Shown here: one piece after another, positions 1,933-60,822 of the stretch
Layout of the letters: the number at the start of each line of letters is the position of its first letter
How positions within the stretch are numbered: position 1 is the first letter of the stretch
From: an uncultured Candidatus Berkelbacteria bacterium
Lineage (GTDB): Bacteria; Patescibacteriota; UBA1384; UBA12157
Assembly (NCBI GenBank): GCA_903877885.1
Contig: CAIRFN010000006.1
Span: forward strand, 3,342 to 67,341
DNA length: 64,000 nucleotides
Reading direction: 5' to 3'
The notes under the pieces: generated by a model
The model's input: only the letters and a program-made list of their open reading frames with translations
The model's database searches: none
What the model was told of the DNA's origin: nothing
Made by a program: the position numbers and the translations under genes

Positions 1933-3396
1933 ATGCAAATCGGACGATCGAAATTCACAATCGGAGTCTTGATCGGATTTTTAAGCGGGATTTTTTTAGC
2001 TAACTTTATGCCGATTAATTTATGGTGGATGGCCAGATTTTTGATTGTTTTAATCGTTTTAATGCTGGTTTTCTGGTCTAACATTTTGCGACGCTTAATT
2101 ATCTTTTGTCTTTTGGGATTAGTTTTAGGCTTAAGTTATTTTAAGATTTATGACTTAAGAGCATCTTACCATCAACTTGTCTATGGTCAAAAAATGGCCA
2201 TTTCTGGGCAAATTCAGGAACCACCAAAAATTAAACCAACGCAAATCCAGGCGATAATTAGTTACAATGGCGCGAAAATTTTAGTTAATTTACCACGCTA
2301 CCCGGAATATCAATTTGGTGATATTTTAAGTTTCAAAGGGGAGATTACCGATCCCAAAACCATCAAACCAATCGATAATTTCAATTACGGCCAATATTTG
2401 ATTGGCCAAAACATTCGCGGCTGGGTCAAAAACCCTGACACAGATACGATCACCGTAAGACGACCTCCGAGGTCGTCGAACAGTGTTAAATTCAAAAAAA
2501 CAATTTTTCAAACCAGTCAAAAATTTCAAGAAAGTTTAACTAAAACTTTGCCCGAGCCATATGCTTCGTTTCAAATCGGTTTAATTTTGGGTAATCGCAC
2601 GACGCAAATTCCCGATTCGCTGACATCGGCCTTTAATCGGACTGGTACAACTCATATTATTGCTGTAAGCGGTTACAATATTACCATTATTATTTCTATG
2701 CTCGCACTCTGTTTCGCTTTATTTTCTAGGCGGCTGGCTTTTTGGTTAACCTTAATTTTTATCGGTATTTTTATTGTGATGACCGGCGCCTCCGCTTCGG
2801 TAGTGCGCGCCGGAATTTTAGGCGGCTTGGTCGCTTGGGGCAGGTTAGAAGGCCGGCGGATTAATCATTTGATTCTACTTTTATTCGTGACATTCATCAT
2901 GTTACTTTTTAATCCTTACCAAATTCACACCGATGCTTCATTCCAATTATCGTTTCTAGCTTTTGCTGGATTAATTTATGTTTCGCCAATGATCCAAAAC
3001 TTTAGAATCGTTTCAAAATTACCAGAAACCATTCGTGCGGTTTTTTCTGAAACCATGGGTGCGCAAATCGCTTGCTTTCCAATTCTAGTTTATAATTTCG
3101 GCATTATCTCTCTGGTGGCACCAATCGTAAATTGTTTAATCTTGCCTTTTGTGCCACTTTCAATGTTGTTAGGATTTATCGCCGGTATTGGTGGTATGAT
3201 TTGGCTTAAACTTGGTCAGTTGTTGGCTGATATCGCTTGGATAATATTAAAGTATATAATAGTTGTAGAGACCTATTTTTCCCAAATTTCTTGGGCAGCG
3301 ATTTCTTTCAAAACCGCCGAGTGGTTCTGGATACCGATTTATTATGTGGTGATTATTTTATTAATTAATAATAATCATGAAAAATCTAAGATCTAG
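1933..3396 (+). CDS. comEC: ComEC/Rec2 DNA internalization channel, N-terminal membrane part (DUF4131 + competence domain)
   Basis: 487 aa polytopic membrane ORF with the ComEC-type motif region ...FNRTGTTHIIAVSGYNI...; followed in a different frame by the MBL domain ORF. Confidence 0.65.
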   Translation: MQIGRSKFTIGVLIGFLSGIFLANFMPINLWWMARFLIVLIVLMLVFWSNILRRLIIFCLLGLVLGLSYFKIYDLRASYHQLVYGQKMAISGQIQEPPKIKPTQIQAIISYNGAKILVNLPRYPEYQFGDILSFKGEITDPKTIKPIDNFNYGQYLIGQNIRGWVKNPDTDTITVRRPPRSSNSVKFKKTIFQTSQKFQESLTKTLPEPYASFQIGLILGNRTTQIPDSLTSAFNRTGTTHIIAVSGYNITIIISMLALCFALFSRRLAFWLTLIFIGIFIVMTGASASVVRAGILGGLVAWGRLEGRRINHLILLLFVTFIMLLFNPYQIHTDASFQLSFLAFAGLIYVSPMIQNFRIVSKLPETIRAVFSETMGAQIACFPILVYNFGIISLVAPIVNCLILPFVPLSMLLGFIAGIGGMIWLKLGQLLADIAWIILKYIIVVETYFSQISWAAISFKTAEWFWIPIYYVVIILLINNNHEKSKI

Positions 3397-24949: not shown

Positions 24950-25621
24950 ATGAATACAAGAAAAACACAATTAACCAACGATCAGCATTACCATATTTTT
25001 AATCGAAGTATAGCGAAATTTGTCATTTTTAATAATGATGATGATTATCTTCGAATGAAAGAGATGTTGAATCTATATCGTTTTGCTGATTTTAATTATA
25101 AATACTCTAAATTTATAATTTTGGATGCGAATCATCAGTCAGCAATTATTCATGATATTACTAAGAAAAATGATTTACTGGTCGAGATAGTGGCGTATAG
25201 TTTAATGCCAACGCATATTCATTTGGTTTTAAAACAGGTGGCTGATGGCGGAATTACAAAATTTATGGGCAAAATTTCTAATAGTTATACTCGATATTTT
25301 AATATCAAACATCATCGTAAAGGTCCACTTTGGGAAGATCATTTTAGAAATGTTTTGGTTTCAAGAGATGAACAAATGTTACATCTAACACGTTACATTC
25401 ATTTAAATGCTAGTTCGGCTGGTTTAGTTGAAAATCCTTCTGACTGGCCATATTCTTCTCTAAAAGAATATACCGACCAAGATGATTATGGATTTTGCGA
25501 TTTTAAGGATGTTATTGATATAGTACCGGCAAAATATAAAAAATTTGTTTTAGATTATAAGGATTATCAACGACAAATTTCTTTAATCAAAACCATTCTA
25601 ATTGATGATTATTCAGGATAA
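24950..25621 (+). CDS. REP-associated tyrosine transposase (RAYT; IS200-like Y1 HUH transposase)
   Basis: HUH motif PTHIHLVL and catalytic Tyr region LTRYIHLN; 223 aa; flanked by inverted REP hairpins. Confidence 0.75.
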   Translation: MNTRKTQLTNDQHYHIFNRSIAKFVIFNNDDDYLRMKEMLNLYRFADFNYKYSKFIILDANHQSAIIHDITKKNDLLVEIVAYSLMPTHIHLVLKQVADGGITKFMGKISNSYTRYFNIKHHRKGPLWEDHFRNVLVSRDEQMLHLTRYIHLNASSAGLVENPSDWPYSSLKEYTDQDDYGFCDFKDVIDIVPAKYKKFVLDYKDYQRQISLIKTILIDDYSG

Positions 25622-25624
25622 TCT

Positions 25625-25657
25625 AACCATATATCCCACCTCCAGGGTGGGCTATAA
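25625..25657. repeat. REP-like palindrome (TAACCATATATCCCACC-TCCAG-GGTGGGCTATA)
   Basis: Same sequence as the 22882 copy; immediately follows the RAYT stop codon. Confidence 0.7.
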
Positions 25658-25709
25658 TTTCGGTAGAAATTTCGGCGACTTTAGTCTATATGGTTAAGCA
25701 CTTATTAGT

Positions 25710-26036
25710 CTATTGAATATGAAGAAGTTTAAAGAGGAAATTGCCAAAAGTTAAGAGAACGTGATGTTTCTGATCTAAAATGGCTAGCACCAAAATTGCG
25801 ACAGCCAAAACTGCAACCACAATACCGGTTTTAGCTAAATCAGCTTTAATTTGTTTTAAGTTTTGAATTTCAACAACTGGTTTAGCGATGTTCGCGGCCA
25901 GATTTTTTTTAATCGATTCGCTCGGCTCAAGTTTGGTATTTCCAACCGTTTCAGCTTTATTGCTAGTTTGGGCAATCTGATTTAATACTTGGTTCTTGAT
26001 TTGGCGAACAAATTTAGCTTTGTTTTTCTTTGACAT
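25710..26036 (-). CDS. Hypothetical protein with C-terminal TM helix
   Basis: 108 aa ORF downstream of tRNA-Cys on the minus strand. Confidence 0.3.
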   Translation of the reverse strand: MSKKNKAKFVRQIKNQVLNQIAQTSNKAETVGNTKLEPSESIKKNLAANIAKPVVEIQNLKQIKADLAKTGIVVAVLAVAILVLAILDQKHHVLLTFGNFLFKLLHIQ

Positions 26037-26069
26037 TTGATTCCTTTGGATTCTATTTCAACCAATAAT

Positions 26070-26144
26070 TGGAGGCGTCGCCGGGACTTGCACCCGGGTA
26101 CGCGGTTTTGCAGACCGCTCCCTGAACTGCTCGGGCACGACGCC
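26070..26144 (-). tRNA. tRNA-Cys(GCA), CCA encoded
   Basis: Reverse complement GGCGTCG-TG-CCCG...GCGGT-CTGCAAA-ACCGC...CCGGG-TGCAAGT-CCCGG-CGACGCC-T-CCA folds as a canonical cloverleaf. Confidence 0.8.
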
Positions 26145-26145
26145 A

Positions 26146-26805
26146 TTACTTATAATAATTTTTATATATTAAGTTTTTTCGGTTTAGAAATAGATTATTA
26201 CTTTCTTCATAAATTTTGTCAAGAACTATTTTGGAATCATGAGTATAATATCTTAGTTGATAGCTATCCTTACAAAATAAAACAGGTCTTTTTTTAATTT
26301 GTAAAAATTTCGATAGCTTTTCTGATAAATTTTCCAGGAACAAGGAATTGCCGCAGGTAAAAACAGTTAATAGTAAATTATTTTTTGTTAAAAATACTGA
26401 ACCATCTCCGTCAAAATACCCTCTGACAAAATGCGGAAAAAATAATGTAGGAATTTCAGGAAATTTAAGTGTTAATGATTTTCGTGTTGTGACACCGAGA
26501 TTAATTAGATCATCAAATATTTTATGATCGCCAATTCTTAATAAGTATAAAACTTTCGAGAAATAAGTACTTTTTTTAAAGTTGATTTTAATAGGTTTTC
26601 TTAACTGTAATTTATGACTCGAGTTCAATATTTTTTTAATTTTTAACAATATTTCTTCGTCTTTGCTTGTTATCCTAAGATATTTCCCTCTTAAATATGA
26701 TGCATCTTCCAAACTTCCATCAGCAAAAATATACCCCAATATATAAGCCATTTCTGGAGTCCATTTTTCAAAGAAACTAGAATTAACTTGATATTTAATG
26801 CCCAT
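26146..26805 (-). CDS. LAGLIDADG homing endonuclease, double-motif single-chain
   Basis: Motifs ILGYIFADGSL and VRGYFDGDGSV about 100 aa apart; 219 aa. Sits 1 nt from tRNA-Cys and 6 nt from the upstream tRNA on the same strand. Confidence 0.8.
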   Translation of the reverse strand: MGIKYQVNSSFFEKWTPEMAYILGYIFADGSLEDASYLRGKYLRITSKDEEILLKIKKILNSSHKLQLRKPIKINFKKSTYFSKVLYLLRIGDHKIFDDLINLGVTTRKSLTLKFPEIPTLFFPHFVRGYFDGDGSVFLTKNNLLLTVFTCGNSLFLENLSEKLSKFLQIKKRPVLFCKDSYQLRYYTHDSKIVLDKIYEESNNLFLNRKNLIYKNYYK

Positions 26806-26811
26806 ATTTAT

Positions 26812-26886
26812 TGGAGCGGGTAACGGGAGTCGAACCCGTATCTCATCCTTGGCAAGGACGTATAAGAACCGTTATACGATACCCGC
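26812..26886 (-). tRNA. Putative tRNA-Gly(GCC), CCA encoded, slightly atypical D-arm
   Basis: Reverse complement GCGGGTA...CGTCC-TTGCCAA-GGATG...ACGGG-TTCGACT-CCCGT-TACCCGC-T-CCA: acceptor, anticodon (GCC) and T arms fold well, but the D-arm spacer is irregular. Needs tRNAscan-SE. Confidence 0.5.
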
Positions 26887-26972
26887 GTGCCATATGCAAT
26901 TATCATTTTACACTGTACTTTTATATTATAGCATCTTTACTTCTTCTCGTAAATACATTATATTATTGTCAT

Positions 26973-27188
26973 ATGCAAAATATCTTAAATTATATTCAAA
27001 TTTGTGTCGGTATTCTTCTGATTACCAGCATTTTACTCCAGCATCGTGGTACCGGCCTTGGTGGTGCTTTTGGTGGCGAAGGTAATGTTTACCGCAGCCG
27101 CCGTGGTGCCGAAAAATTTCTCTTTAATGCGACTGTCGCCCTGGCTGTGATTTTTGTTGGCCTGGCAGTTGCTCATATCGTTCTTTAA
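26973..27188 (+). CDS. secG: Preprotein translocase subunit SecG
   Basis: MQNILNYIQICVGILLITSILLQHRGTGLGGAFGG… is the SecG signature (TM helix + GLGGAFGG). Start chosen at ATG 26973, in frame with track ORF 26811; the upstream part of that track ORF overlaps the tRNA. Confidence 0.8.
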   Translation: MQNILNYIQICVGILLITSILLQHRGTGLGGAFGGEGNVYRSRRGAEKFLFNATVALAVIFVGLAVAHIVL

Positions 27189-27204
27189 GTTCTAAGGAAA
27201 CCAA

Positions 27205-28584
27205 ATGCAAAACAAGGATTGGTTTAGTTTTAGTAAAATCAAAAAATACTTTTACCGTCAGACTTGGACTGGGATCAAGACGGTTCATGAACGTTTGACT
27301 CAAATCGATCAAGCGATAATTTTTGTTTTGATTTTGGCAATTTTTGCGTCAGGCTTTTTTATTTGGCGTAATCATTGGATTAAAACTACTTATGAAGTTC
27401 CGGCAAATGGCGGAACTTTGGTTGAGGGAATTGTCGGCGAACCCAAAAATTTGGATCAATATTTAGCCAGATTGACTAGCGCGGGTTTAACTAAACTTCA
27501 GCCAACTGGTGAAGTCAAAGGCGATTTAGCTGAAAGTTGGCAAGTTTCAACAGATAATAAAACATTTGATTTTAAATTGCGTGATGGGGTTAGTTCCCAA
27601 GATCTTTCAAATCAACTTCAAGCATCAAATATTTGGCCAAATATTGAAGTTGCCACCCCAACCGATGATCATATTCAATTTAAATTTAAAGCTCCATTTA
27701 GCCCATTTTTATACACTTCGACTGAACCGGTTTTTAATCTTGGACCATATAAAATCACTAAAGAAGATAAAACTCAAATTACATTGGTGGCGCGTGATGA
27801 TTATTGGCAGGGAAGACCTTATATTGATAAAATTATTGTTCGACTTTATCCGAATGAAGATGCTTTAATTCGGGCCGCTAAAAGTCATCAGATTATGAAT
27901 TACGTTATTGTCGATAAAAACGAGTGGCGAACCAGTAATTCTAATCTATTGGAAATGGCCTTACCAAAGCAATTAGATCTTTTCTTTAATATGAATAATG
28001 CTGATTTGAAAAATAAAGCTTTACGCCAGGCTTTGCGTGATAATAAACCAGCCGACAAGGCATATAAATTTACTTTAGTTACCTCTGACACGACTAAAAA
28101 TATACAGATGGCCGAACAAATTAAAGCTCAATACGCGGCTTTAAAGGTTGATGTTACGATTCAAAAATACAGCAATGTTGTTTTGCAGAAGGATATTATT
28201 CCCAAACGGAGTTACGATATACTACTCTATGGTTTGGATTACGGTCCTGATCCTGATCCGTATCCATTTTGGCATTCGTCGCAAATTGCTTCAACTAAAA
28301 ATCCGACCGGGATGAATTTATCAAATTATTATAATAAATCAGCTGACCGGTTGCTCGAAGATGCACGTCAAACTTTTGATTTTAAGGTGCGCGAAGATAA
28401 ATATAATCAATTTAATAAGATTTTAGATGATGATGTACCATATATAAAATTGTTACAAGAGTCGATGGATTATGTGGTTAGCCCCAATGTAAAAGGTTTG
28501 GATAAGATTTTTGGCTTTAGTGAAACCGACCGATTCTTAAATGTGAACCAGTGGTATTTAAAGACAAAGAGAATTAAAAAATGA
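27205..28584 (+). CDS. Extracellular solute-binding protein, family 5 (OppA/DppA-like), membrane-anchored
   Basis: N-terminal TM anchor; 459 aa with periplasmic SBP_bac_5-like organisation. Assigned by overall similarity, weakly. Confidence 0.5.
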   Translation: MQNKDWFSFSKIKKYFYRQTWTGIKTVHERLTQIDQAIIFVLILAIFASGFFIWRNHWIKTTYEVPANGGTLVEGIVGEPKNLDQYLARLTSAGLTKLQPTGEVKGDLAESWQVSTDNKTFDFKLRDGVSSQDLSNQLQASNIWPNIEVATPTDDHIQFKFKAPFSPFLYTSTEPVFNLGPYKITKEDKTQITLVARDDYWQGRPYIDKIIVRLYPNEDALIRAAKSHQIMNYVIVDKNEWRTSNSNLLEMALPKQLDLFFNMNNADLKNKALRQALRDNKPADKAYKFTLVTSDTTKNIQMAEQIKAQYAALKVDVTIQKYSNVVLQKDIIPKRSYDILLYGLDYGPDPDPYPFWHSSQIASTKNPTGMNLSNYYNKSADRLLEDARQTFDFKVREDKYNQFNKILDDDVPYIKLLQESMDYVVSPNVKGLDKIFGFSETDRFLNVNQWYLKTKRIKK

Positions 28585-59460: not shown

Positions 59461-59532
59461 GGCCGCTTAACTCAGCGGTAGAGTACTTCGTTTACATCGA
59501 AGGAGTCGCAGGTTCGAATCCTGCAGCGGCCA
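59461..59532 (+). tRNA. tRNA-Val(TAC), no encoded CCA
   Basis: GGCCGCT-TA-ACTC-AGCGGTA-GAGT-A-CTTCG-TTTACAT-CGAAG-GAGTC-GCAGG-TTCGAAT-CCTGC-AGCGGCC-A folds as a canonical cloverleaf. Confidence 0.8.
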
Positions 59533-59731: not shown

Positions 59732-60424
59732 ATGAATAGTCTCATCAGTTCAAAAGAAAGAGTCATATCTTTACGAAAAGAAGGTAAAAGTTATGGAGAA
59801 ATAAATAAGATTTTAGGATTACCTAAAAGCACTTTATCAACCTGGCTAAAAGATTTGCCGATTTCTAAAAAGGTAAGAGAGAAAAATATTAATAATGCTA
59901 AATCTGTTTGGGCTAAAAATATTATAGAGTTTAATAAATTACGCTCTGAAAAATACCAAAAAGATACACAATTACTATTAGATAATTTTTCTTTACAAGT
60001 TCCTTTGGTTTCAAAAGATATTCTATTTTTTATCGGTTTGTCGTTATTTTGGGCTGAAGGTGGAAAAAGAGAAAAATGGAGTGTAATATTCGTCAATTCC
60101 GATCCAATAATGGTCAAAGCGATGATGAGATTTTTCAGAGAAGTTTGCTTTGTTCCGGAAGAAAAATTCAGACTAAGAATGCACATCTACCCAAATATCG
60201 ATGAAAATGAAGCTAAAGAATTTTGGTCAAAGATAACCAAATTACCATTAACGCAATTTGGAAAGTCACAAACTCAAATCAGTAAAAGTAGCCAGCATAA
60301 AAGACCAATAAATAGGTTGCCATATGGAACCTTAAATATAAGAATTGGAGATGCCAGCCTAAATAAGAAAATAAAAGGATGGCTTTTAGGATTAGGTAAA
60401 CAATTTAACAATATGCCTGGGTAG
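59732..60424 (+). CDS. HTH + LAGLIDADG-like (I-SceI-type) homing endonuclease-like protein
   Basis: N-terminal HTH (…SYGEINKILGLPKSTLSTWLKDL…); ...IGLSLFWAEGGKREKW resembles the second LAGLIDADG block of I-SceI (LAYWFMDDGGKWDY). The stop overlaps the 5' end of tRNA-Phe. Confidence 0.5.
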   Translation: MNSLISSKERVISLRKEGKSYGEINKILGLPKSTLSTWLKDLPISKKVREKNINNAKSVWAKNIIEFNKLRSEKYQKDTQLLLDNFSLQVPLVSKDILFFIGLSLFWAEGGKREKWSVIFVNSDPIMVKAMMRFFREVCFVPEEKFRLRMHIYPNIDENEAKEFWSKITKLPLTQFGKSQTQISKSSQHKRPINRLPYGTLNIRIGDASLNKKIKGWLLGLGKQFNNMPG

Positions 60425-60697
60425 CTCAGTGGTAGAGCACATGACTGAATTTTCGGTCCACTCGACAGTAATGTCGATGTGAGAATCGGGTGAATTCGGG
60501 GAAACCTCGCAAATCGCGGGTCAATCCCGAGCCGAGCCTCGGTGGGTTTAAGTATCGAGGAAGGTGTAGAGACTAATAGGTGAGTCCCAACAATAATCCT
60601 ATAAATAGCGCCCGACTTCCCTCTGGGAAGATGAGATAGTCCACCACGTAATTGGAAAATCATGGTGTCGGCAGTCCGATCCTGCCCCCAGGCACCA
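60415..60697 (+). tRNA. tRNA-Phe(GAA) interrupted by a 208-nt group I intron in the anticodon loop (exons 60415..60446 and 60655..60697; CCA encoded)
   Basis: Exon 1 is GCCTGGG-TA-GCTC-AGTGGTA-GAGC-A-CATGA-CT. Exon 2 is GAAAA-TCATG-GTGTC-GGCAG-TCCGATC-CTGCC-CCCAGGC-A-CCA. The intron ends in G after a 5' exon U, and contains group I R-like (GGTGTAGAGACTAATAG) and S-like (GATGAGATAGTCC) elements. Confidence 0.75.
60447..60654 (+). ncRNA. Group I self-splicing intron (no ORF) within tRNA-Phe
   Basis: Conserved R/S core elements and terminal G; too short to encode an endonuclease. Confidence 0.65.
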
Positions 60698-60717
60698 GCA
60701 TAAATTTATCAAAGGTG

Positions 60718-60760
60718 ATAAATAGTTTCGGCAGTTCGCCTTTAGGTATAGTTCCTGCCC
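60718..60760 (+). repeat. Duplicated tRNA 3'-end fragment (TCGGCAGTTCGCCTTTAGGTATAGTTCCTGCCCCCAGGCACCA)
   Basis: Ends with the same CCTGCCCCCAGGCACCA as tRNA-Phe, 21 nt downstream of it; an att-site-like direct repeat. Confidence 0.6.
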
Positions 60761-60822
60761 CCAGGCACCAAATTATATCACTGCTAAAAATATTAGTAGT
60801 GAATGTTTAGTATTGGAAAAAC

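Follow-up and report, generated by a model that had tools for sequence, protein, structure and literature searches.

The window analysed here is a stretch of 64,000 nucleotides from an uncultured Candidatus Berkelbacteria bacterium (assembly GCA_903877885.1, contig CAIRFN010000006.1, positions 3,342 to 67,341 of the forward strand), in which an open reading frame (ORF) of the LAGLIDADG homing endonuclease type fills the space between two tRNA genes. Read along the minus strand, the order is tRNA-Gly(GCC), 6 nt, a 219-aa LAGLIDADG ORF, 1 nt and tRNA-Cys(GCA). This is the layout reported by a first-pass annotation of the same DNA, whose tRNA order, 6-nt and 1-nt gaps and two protein motifs were all recovered from the sequence, from ARAGORN and from the translated ORF. 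The locus consists of the following features:

26812-26886, minus strand: tRNA-Gly(GCC), complete, CCA encoded (ARAGORN; Rfam tRNA model 54.9 bits, model positions 1-71)
26806-26811, minus strand: spacer ATAAAT, 6 nt from the CCA end of tRNA-Gly to the ATG, without a Shine-Dalgarno sequence (sequence)
26146-26805, minus strand: LAGLIDADG ORF, 219 aa, ATG start, TAA stop (ORF list, Pfam)
26145, minus strand: a single T from the TAA stop to nucleotide 1 of tRNA-Cys (GGCG follows) (sequence)
26070-26144, minus strand: tRNA-Cys(GCA), complete, CCA encoded (ARAGORN; Rfam 52.8 bits, model positions 1-71)

Both tRNAs had been described as intact, and both are complete by ARAGORN and match the Rfam tRNA model over its full length; the Rfam scores come from a local scan, the whole-window Rfam run having listed tRNA-Gly alone because its speed filters dropped tRNA-Cys. 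The annotation had also named an arrangement that would overturn it, in which one flanking tRNA is really split and the ORF lies inside the intron, and neither ARAGORN nor Rfam finds any such split tRNA at this position.

The ORF is not a chance reading frame, since a protein search with it returned 1456 homologues at E <= 1e-3 and its AlphaFold model is confident (predicted local distance difference test score, pLDDT, 93.4; predicted template-modelling score, pTM, 0.90) and matches solved single-chain LAGLIDADG endonucleases. The protein carries the motifs ILGYIFADGSL and VRGYFDGDGSV, centred on D29/G30 and D134/G135, and matches Pfam LAGLIDADG_3 (PF14528) with 40.7 bits against a cut-off of 22.5 (E = 2.9e-10) and PHROG 4645 'endonuclease' with E = 1.2e-40. 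Two helix-plus-four-strand repeats are seen in the model, corresponding to the two alpha-beta-beta-alpha-beta-beta-alpha domains of a predicted pseudo-dimer, and the best structures found by Foldseek are I-AniI-like enzymes, I-Tsp061I, the bI3 maturase and I-SceI (TM-scores 0.57-0.65, identity 12-18%). The best sequence match among solved structures is 2DCH (I-Tsp061I, E = 1.7e-7), and no characterised enzyme exceeds about 35% identity. The catalytic aspartates are kept throughout the family in all of its site classes (D29 in 93/94 members, D134 in 94/94), conservation is unusually high over the first 45 residues, and the majority of copies are intact. The Pfam WhiA-type model PF14527 scores 20.9 bits, under its cut-off of 23.2, and for the window protein no helix-turn-helix (HTH) domain was detected, no NCBIfam model matched and no defence-system model (PADLOC) matched at E <= 0.01. 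Judged by its motifs, its Pfam match, its predicted fold and its acidic residues, the ORF has the make-up of a single-chain, two-motif LAGLIDADG homing endonuclease gene. Enzymes of this class cut double-stranded DNA at specific sites and leave 4-nt 3' overhangs.

Those homologues with a named source belong mostly to the Candidate Phyla Radiation (CPR), and none of the homologues exceeds 53% identity to the window ORF apart from P0001, a partial copy in another assembly that is 100% identical. Relatives occur in at least 544 genomes of CPR and Omnitrophota, one genome having been scanned per species; 80 loci of this set were retrieved and later loci were added for the assignment of position classes, giving approximately 100 ORFs. 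The first three homologues to be located all lay directly upstream of tRNA-Cys(GCA) in contexts that were otherwise unrelated, and 73 of the approximately 100 ORFs stand directly 5' of this tRNA on the same strand. Ten lie 5' of tRNA-Asp(GTC), six of them with tRNA-Met 2-12 nt upstream; five are wedged between tRNA-Cys and tRNA-Leu(TAA), a few adjoin tRNA-Leu(TAA)/tRNA-Val(GAC) or tRNA-Leu(GAG), and four are found 51-82 nt downstream of tRNA-Cys. The position classes form separate clades in a neighbour-joining tree, in which the window ORF is sister to that of L001. In a survey of 87 loci, tRNA-Gly was directly upstream of the ORF in the lineage of the window and L001 only, and hence it is the downstream tRNA that is the conserved partner. 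The Gly-Cys pair around the ORF, as given in the first-pass annotation, is borne out at the window locus and is not what the family has in common. Among the sister clades that stand 5' of tRNA-Asp or tRNA-Leu, a wedged position between two tRNAs is frequent.

The same survey places the stop codon of the tRNA-Cys class between -129 and +39 nt from nucleotide 1 of tRNA-Cys. Its commonest position is -18, where five codons ('GxVVK') and the stop run in frame with nucleotide 1 of the tRNA; family ORFs often read 18 nt into the tRNA, and in several homologues a C-terminal extension is translated tRNA-Cys. As a control, we inspected 87 more distant homologues on viral contigs (28-42% identity), of which 1/87 adjoins a tRNA. 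Phages as carriers of the clade were rejected on this evidence, the viral homologues being only 28-42% identical and, with that one exception, not beside tRNAs. The exception is L221 (3001-3720), on a 427-kb IMG/VR contig, where tRNA-Trp(CCA) abuts the ORF and tRNA-Ala(GGC) is 74 nt off; it is possible that this contig represents a phage carrier of the tRNA-wedged layout.

Two metagenome-assembled genomes hold two family members each: L024 and L063 (DATDVS01), and L041 and L082 (CAZYSI01). One of these genomes has two tRNA-Cys-linked copies on different contigs and the other has one Cys-linked and one Asp-linked copy, although a mixture of strains is possible. Another family-related LAGLIDADG ORF, cut by the end of the locus, lies downstream of a purF-like gene in L207 (8149-8491) and L208 (7933-8368). 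No description of tRNA-flanking LAGLIDADG genes in CPR was found in the literature searched, the coverage of which was incomplete, so that an earlier description is possible; a 2026 survey of Patescibacteria tRNA introns does not mention them (PMC13011429).

The surroundings of the tRNA unit allow the locus to be followed into related genomes, and comprise:

about 26975-27188: SecG, divergent from the tRNA unit
27205-28584: family-5 solute-binding protein (SBP), divergent from the tRNA unit
25710-26036, minus strand: 108-aa ORF (MSKKNKAKF...) whose C-terminal segment is hydrophobic, separated from tRNA-Cys by 33 nt on its downstream side (ORF list)

Named homologues of SBP belong to Candidatus Berkelbacteria (CPR/Patescibacteria). 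The 108-aa ORF has no Pfam match and is probably co-transcribed with the tRNAs; small ORFs homologous to it come after tRNA-Cys in L001, L209 and L211. An IS200-like ORF of the Y1 transposase family (24950-25621, plus strand; Pfam Y1_Tnp E = 1.1e-8) is found approximately 90 nt past the end of the 108-aa ORF.

At the SecG/SBP locus the LAGLIDADG ORF is absent from seven relatives and present in L001 alone, which is the most distant of the eight (SBP 47% identical to that of the window). In the window orientation, L209 and L211 (SBP 55% in both) have 4 nt and 2 nt, respectively, between the two tRNAs; in L207 (71%), L208 (59%) and L210 (54%) the tRNA pair is inverted, with spacers of 29, 149 and 52 nt; and for P0122 (70%) and P0128 (61%) absence of the ORF was read from the gene map only. 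The comparison with related genomes that the first-pass annotation had proposed therefore yields both presence and absence at one locus, with clean empty sites in L209 and L211, and on this alignment the ORF fills what is a 2-4 nt spacer in the tRNA-Gly(GCC)/tRNA-Cys(GCA) pair of its relatives. The empty junction of L211 reads ...CACCCGCTCCA-tt-GGCGTGATGGCC..., and the window-type junction, as reconstructed without the ORF, reads ...TACCCGCTCCA-nn-GGCGTCGTGCCCGAG....

The inversion of the pair, into the direction of SecG, is seen in L207, L208 and L210 and not in the window, L001, L209 or L211, and is independent of the presence of the endonuclease gene. Within the 149-nt Gly-Cys spacer of L208 there is also a perfect 27-nt direct repeat, AATAATCGCTGAGTGGCGTTGTGTCCG, at 3070-3096 and 3167-3193 (starts 97 nt apart, 70 nt between), which duplicates nucleotides 1-13 of tRNA-Cys together with 14 nt of upstream flank and may be a trace left by sequence that was once inserted at, or lost from, the 5' end of tRNA-Cys.

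Occupied sites are rare in general. We sampled tRNA-Cys loci with a pattern lying within tRNA-Cys alone (anticodon arm and T-loop), and so blind to the ORF, and kept the 92 loci with enough upstream sequence; the exact 5' pattern of the tRNA-Cys of the window and L001 had given no metagenome match. Five of the 92 carry the ORF upstream (approximately 5%), one of these being a 76-codon remnant, and about eight have a member of another clade downstream of tRNA-Cys, one of them frameshifted. Degenerate copies include L018, with an in-frame stop, L111, and L159, in which only the 76 tRNA-proximal codons are kept. Syntenic pairs of occupied and empty loci exist elsewhere (for example, L038 and L091, or L046 and L192), and in these the cassette replaces 36-110 nt between the stop of the upstream gene and nucleotide 1 of tRNA-Cys.

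Across 643 pairs of loci with homologous flanks, the identity of the ORF is decoupled from that of the flanks, in both directions: L023 and L024 have ORFs that are 82% identical in flanks that are 51% identical, and L047 and L056 have ORFs that are 68% identical in flanks that are 94% identical. The latter pair is 91-98% identical in DNA but for one block at 57-74%, which runs from the 5' end of the ORF into the interior of tRNA-Cys; the two tRNA-Cys genes have the acceptor stem alone in common and belong to different T-loop types, and the next gene, tRNA-Leu(TAA), is identical. To judge from these alignments, the ORF and the adjacent tRNA-Cys sequence are shown to be exchanged between genomes as a block. 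The window bears similar marks. Nucleotides 1-41 of its tRNA-Cys differ from L001 at 1 position, and its variable loop and T-arm differ at 10/25 positions and are closer to L208 and L209, a mosaic contrast with a Fisher p of 1e-4. Its tRNA-Gly stands apart from six Berkelbacteria tRNA-Gly(GCC), which are 79-100% alike among themselves and 67-71% identical to it. The kept catalytic aspartates, patchy occupancy, empty sites and block exchange are, at the level of genome comparison, the signatures of homing with co-conversion.

The T-loop of the window tRNA-Cys, UGCAAGU, has G55 at a position where U (as pseudouridine 55) is near-universal in tRNAs. G55 T-loops (UGCAAGU or UGCGAAU) are common in the tRNA-Cys of CPR, for example in L009, L011 and L013, and are also present in some tRNA-Gly (L001, L207, L208 and L211). 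We considered the G55 T-loop as a correlate of occupancy and found no association, both T-loop types being represented among occupied loci.

Three promoter-like sites accompany the tRNA unit of the window:

26925-26953, minus strand: candidate promoter TTTACG-17-TATAAT, the -10 box preceded by TG, 38 nt ahead of tRNA-Gly (consensus scan, 10/12)
26899-26904, minus strand: second candidate -10 box GATAAT with a weak -35, 12 nt upstream of tRNA-Gly (aligned upstream sequences)
26194-26222, minus strand: candidate internal promoter TTGACA-17-AATAAT in the 3' end of the ORF, approximately 50 nt upstream of tRNA-Cys (consensus match 11/12)

The first is the candidate promoter of a unit formed by tRNA-Gly, the LAGLIDADG ORF, tRNA-Cys and the small ORF. 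The GATAAT block is homologous to a GATATAAT block that is equally spaced from tRNA-Gly in L001, L209 and L211.

Family members differ from ordinary genes of the window in how their start codons are placed. Shine-Dalgarno-like tetramers precede 4/64 family members, compared with 21/43 long ORFs of the window. In 17/64 loci (a count that leaves aside the loci of a second spacing variant) the motif TTGCA-N16-19-TAnAAT is followed by the start codon 6-9 nt past the -10 box, and in wedge loci the start codon comes 1-12 nt past the 3' end of the preceding tRNA, the distance in the window being 6 nt. The upstream motif TTGCAGTAT...TTACCAC was considered as a tRNA remnant or RNA element, and a promoter of the sigma-70 type fits it better; this cassette promoter has -35 TTGCAG, a 17-nt spacer, -10 TATAAT and the start codon 6 nt downstream. 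Bases of its spacer are also conserved (GTAT after TTGCA, TTACCAC before TATAAT), and their conservation is unexplained. We suggest from these features that the ORF is probably expressed as a leaderless, or nearly leaderless, mRNA excised by tRNA processing.

Promoter-like sites are also concentrated at the other end of the gene. In the last 95 nt before tRNA-Cys, 49% reach at least 9/12 promoter matches, compared with 10% for ORF interiors, an enrichment that holds family-wide (Mann-Whitney p = 1e-15). It suggests that the cassette carries a replacement promoter for the essential tRNA-Cys, and a promoter in the 3' end of the ORF would explain why a remnant keeps its tRNA-proximal end.

With regard to the target, the sequence before unoccupied tRNA-Cys genes shows no conservation except at -1, where T is the commonest base (58%) and is also the base found in the window; a conserved left half-site upstream of empty tRNA-Cys genes was looked for and not found. 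Hence, if the site is centred on the junction, its conserved part must be the first 10-20 bp of the tRNA, and we infer that the tRNA gene itself is the target of the enzyme. Substitutions in the acceptor stem distinguish some occupied loci from empty ones (L024, L036 and L063 compared with L091/L139). Immunity through such substitutions was nevertheless rejected as a general rule, other occupied loci having the same 5' sequence as empty ones.

We consider it probable, at roughly 0.72 by our own estimate, that the window ORF is a mobile, free-standing, single-chain LAGLIDADG homing endonuclease gene from a clade specialised on the 5' edge of particular tRNA genes. Of the two identities offered by the first-pass annotation, the intron-less free-standing homing endonuclease is the one favoured by the whole tRNAs, the relatives that lack the ORF, the kept catalytic aspartates and the patchy, block-exchanged distribution; the domesticated maturase-like protein is left without support, the ORF being absent from seven relatives at the locus. 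The enzyme would cut the unoccupied tRNA junction, with the first 10-20 bp or so of tRNA-Cys as conserved half-site and, in the window, the 3' end of tRNA-Gly as the other. In wedge loci generally (Gly|Cys, Met|Asp and Cys|Leu) the 3' end of the preceding tRNA could provide a second conserved half, and insertion would then split the recognition site. Repair would copy the gene in and co-convert neighbouring tRNA sequence, which would explain the mosaic tRNA-Cys and foreign-looking tRNA-Gly of the window. The gene would be transcribed with the tRNA operon and its mRNA freed when the tRNA ends are processed. Having a leader of 6 nt and lacking a Shine-Dalgarno sequence, the message would be translated in a leaderless or near-leaderless manner; cassette-type relatives would arrive at the same result through a -10 box placed 6 nt before the start codon. 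A promoter within the 3' end of the ORF would keep tRNA-Cys expressed. In members whose ORF ends within the tRNA, cleavage by RNase P might leave a non-stop mRNA and so throttle the enzyme, which is speculation on our part.

More tentatively, and at somewhat under even odds, the family as a whole may represent a class of tRNA-junction homing endonucleases in ultra-small bacteria of CPR and Omnitrophota, undescribed in the literature searched, that combines a homing site at a tRNA end, leaderless tRNA-punctuated messages and the shuffling of tRNA genes. The site of such a class would be the mature 5' end of a specific tRNA gene, plus the 3' end of the preceding tRNA where there is one, and co-conversion would move whole or half tRNA genes between lineages, G55 T-loop alleles included.

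Several points weigh against a mobile gene homing to tRNA ends. For every family member, cleavage and target are inferred from sequence comparison, and every promoter call is a consensus match in AT-rich DNA. In most lineages a site centred on the junction would have one conserved half only, and occupied alleles keep the tRNA half unchanged, which leaves the avoidance of self-cutting unexplained. The intact copies and conserved N-terminal 45 residues could reflect selection at the level of the host. The ORFs of the window and L001 are 53% identical and their SBP neighbours 47%, which fits long vertical residence with repeated loss equally as well as repeated invasion. Finally, it is unexplained how alleles with and without the ORF would come together within a single CPR cell.

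Other explanations differ in how far they survive the same observations. An ordinary endonuclease encoded in a tRNA-interrupting intron, of group I or archaeal type, might be expected from the closest annotated relatives of the ORF, which are 31-35% identical to it and are intron-encoded ('DOD') endonucleases from phages of Staphylococcus and Bacillus, and from the presence in the window of another tRNA split by a group I intron at approximately 60.4-60.7 kb. It is refuted by the locus itself, where the flanking tRNAs form complete cloverleaves with different anticodons, the 6 nt and 1 nt outside the ORF are too little for a ribozyme, Rfam intron families find no match in 25600-27300 even at E <= 10, and the tRNAs are adjacent in relatives. 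Alternatively, the ORF could be a domesticated host factor serving the tRNA operon, for instance by regulating its transcription or by binding RNA and assisting tRNA-Cys in the manner of a maturase. Its linkage to tRNA-Cys is tight and long-lived over very different genomes, conservation of its N-terminal region is very strong, the majority of copies are intact, the conserved spacer bases of the cassette promoter could be an operator, and the bI3 maturase is among the structural matches. Yet a host factor would not be expected to be absent from seven relatives at the locus and from approximately 95% of sampled tRNA-Cys loci, to have paralogous clades at other tRNAs or to be block-swapped between near-identical genomes; the Pfam WhiA-type match is below threshold, and the near-invariance of both catalytic aspartates is unlike WhiA and many maturases. 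Domestication of either kind, WhiA-like or maturase-like, is unlikely in view of the kept catalytic residues, the patchy distribution and the block-wise exchange of the ORF.

It is also conceivable, if on balance rather improbable, that the family was once mobile and the window copy is an immobile relic that no longer homes and is costly to remove. Two essential single-copy tRNAs lie immediately at the ends of the ORF, the 3' end of which may hold the promoter of tRNA-Cys, there being a promoter-like site 50 nt before that tRNA and an enrichment of such sites family-wide; the L159 remnant retains its tRNA-proximal 76 codons only; and the nearest homologue, at 53% identity, has diverged to an extent like that of the flanking SBP. 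Against a relic, the window ORF is full-length with all residues that are invariant in the family, both catalytic aspartates among them, and the mosaic tRNA-Cys and outlier tRNA-Gly point to recombination at this very locus. The identical partial copy P0001 carries no weight in either direction. A mobile homing endonuclease gene at a tRNA edge is the preferred explanation.

If that explanation is correct, LAGLIDADG homing endonucleases would occupy a niche that is new for them, namely the very short tRNA-tRNA spacers of cellular chromosomes, and would do so without the shelter of an intron; a selfish gene would have been made harmless there through exact ends, a lack of untranslated regions and a built-in replacement promoter for the tRNA. 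It would provide direct comparative evidence of recombination in populations of CPR and Omnitrophota, in which essential tRNA genes, or halves of them, would travel horizontally as passengers. Should the broader class also hold, it would drive mosaicism among tRNA genes and mark recombination in organisms that are thought to exchange little DNA. The family would further supply many natural meganucleases, presumably with targets derived from tRNA genes, and a bacterial test case for tRNA-punctuated, leaderless expression. At present its ORFs are annotated as hypothetical or generic LAGLIDADG proteins, and gene callers extend them into tRNA genes.

The window contains a second region in which tRNA genes and other elements are closely juxtaposed. 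A tRNA-Phe(GAA) at 60414-60770 (plus strand) has its anticodon loop split by a group I intron (RF00028, 60437-60664, 51.9 bits); it was missed by ARAGORN, and its exons joined in silico give a tRNA-Phe(GAA) cloverleaf. A 16-nt motif of its 3' end, CTGCCCCCAGGCACCA, occurs twice, at 60682 and 60755, the 3' end of tRNA-Phe being partly duplicated downstream. Between tRNA-Val(TAC) (59461-59532) and this intron-bearing tRNA-Phe is a 230-aa ORF (59732-60424, plus strand) with a weak N-terminal transposase-like HTH (Pfam HTH_SB E = 2.9e-6), the stop codon of which lies in the first bases of tRNA-Phe. It is the second ORF in the window to run into the 5' end of a tRNA and is unrelated to the LAGLIDADG family.

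Among known systems, the free-standing LAGLIDADG ORFs of fungal and algal organelles are likewise intergenic and often near tRNA clusters. These are organelle rather than bacterial systems, and in the parts of that literature covered we did not find reported a clade fixed at the 5' end of one tRNA, or an ORF reading into a tRNA. The expression proposed here recalls the tRNA punctuation of mitochondria reportedly described by Ojala et al. in 1981, in which coding regions are bounded by tRNAs whose processing sets the ends of mRNAs. WhiA is a domesticated, chromosomal bacterial protein with a LAGLIDADG-derived fold, which has lost the catalytic residues, has a C-terminal HTH and is universal in its clades; the window family, in contrast, keeps the catalytic residues, has no detected HTH, is patchy in distribution and matches the Pfam WhiA model below threshold only.

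CPR genomes are known to be rich in LAGLIDADG genes, including endonucleases of rRNA insertions (PMC11270868). These, the 'DOD' enzymes of Twort-like Staphylococcus phages, I-Tsp061I (2DCH), I-AniI and I-SceI have the same single-chain, double-motif fold and catalytic aspartates as the predicted window protein, but lie inside self-splicing introns or rRNA insertions, whereas the window ORF is intron-less and occupies the intergenic space between tRNAs. T4 SegB, a free-standing GIY-YIG homing endonuclease encoded in a tRNA cluster, recognises a motif of the tRNA T-arm and spreads neighbouring tRNA genes (PMC2330249). It differs from the present family in its GIY-YIG fold and motif, in being found in a phage and not in a cellular chromosome, and in homing during co-infection; nor does SegB abut mature tRNA ends or read into a tRNA. 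It is nonetheless the closest functional analogue, being likewise free-standing and placed between tRNAs, and its co-conversion of tRNA genes parallels the exchange of the ORF and tRNA-Cys as a block.

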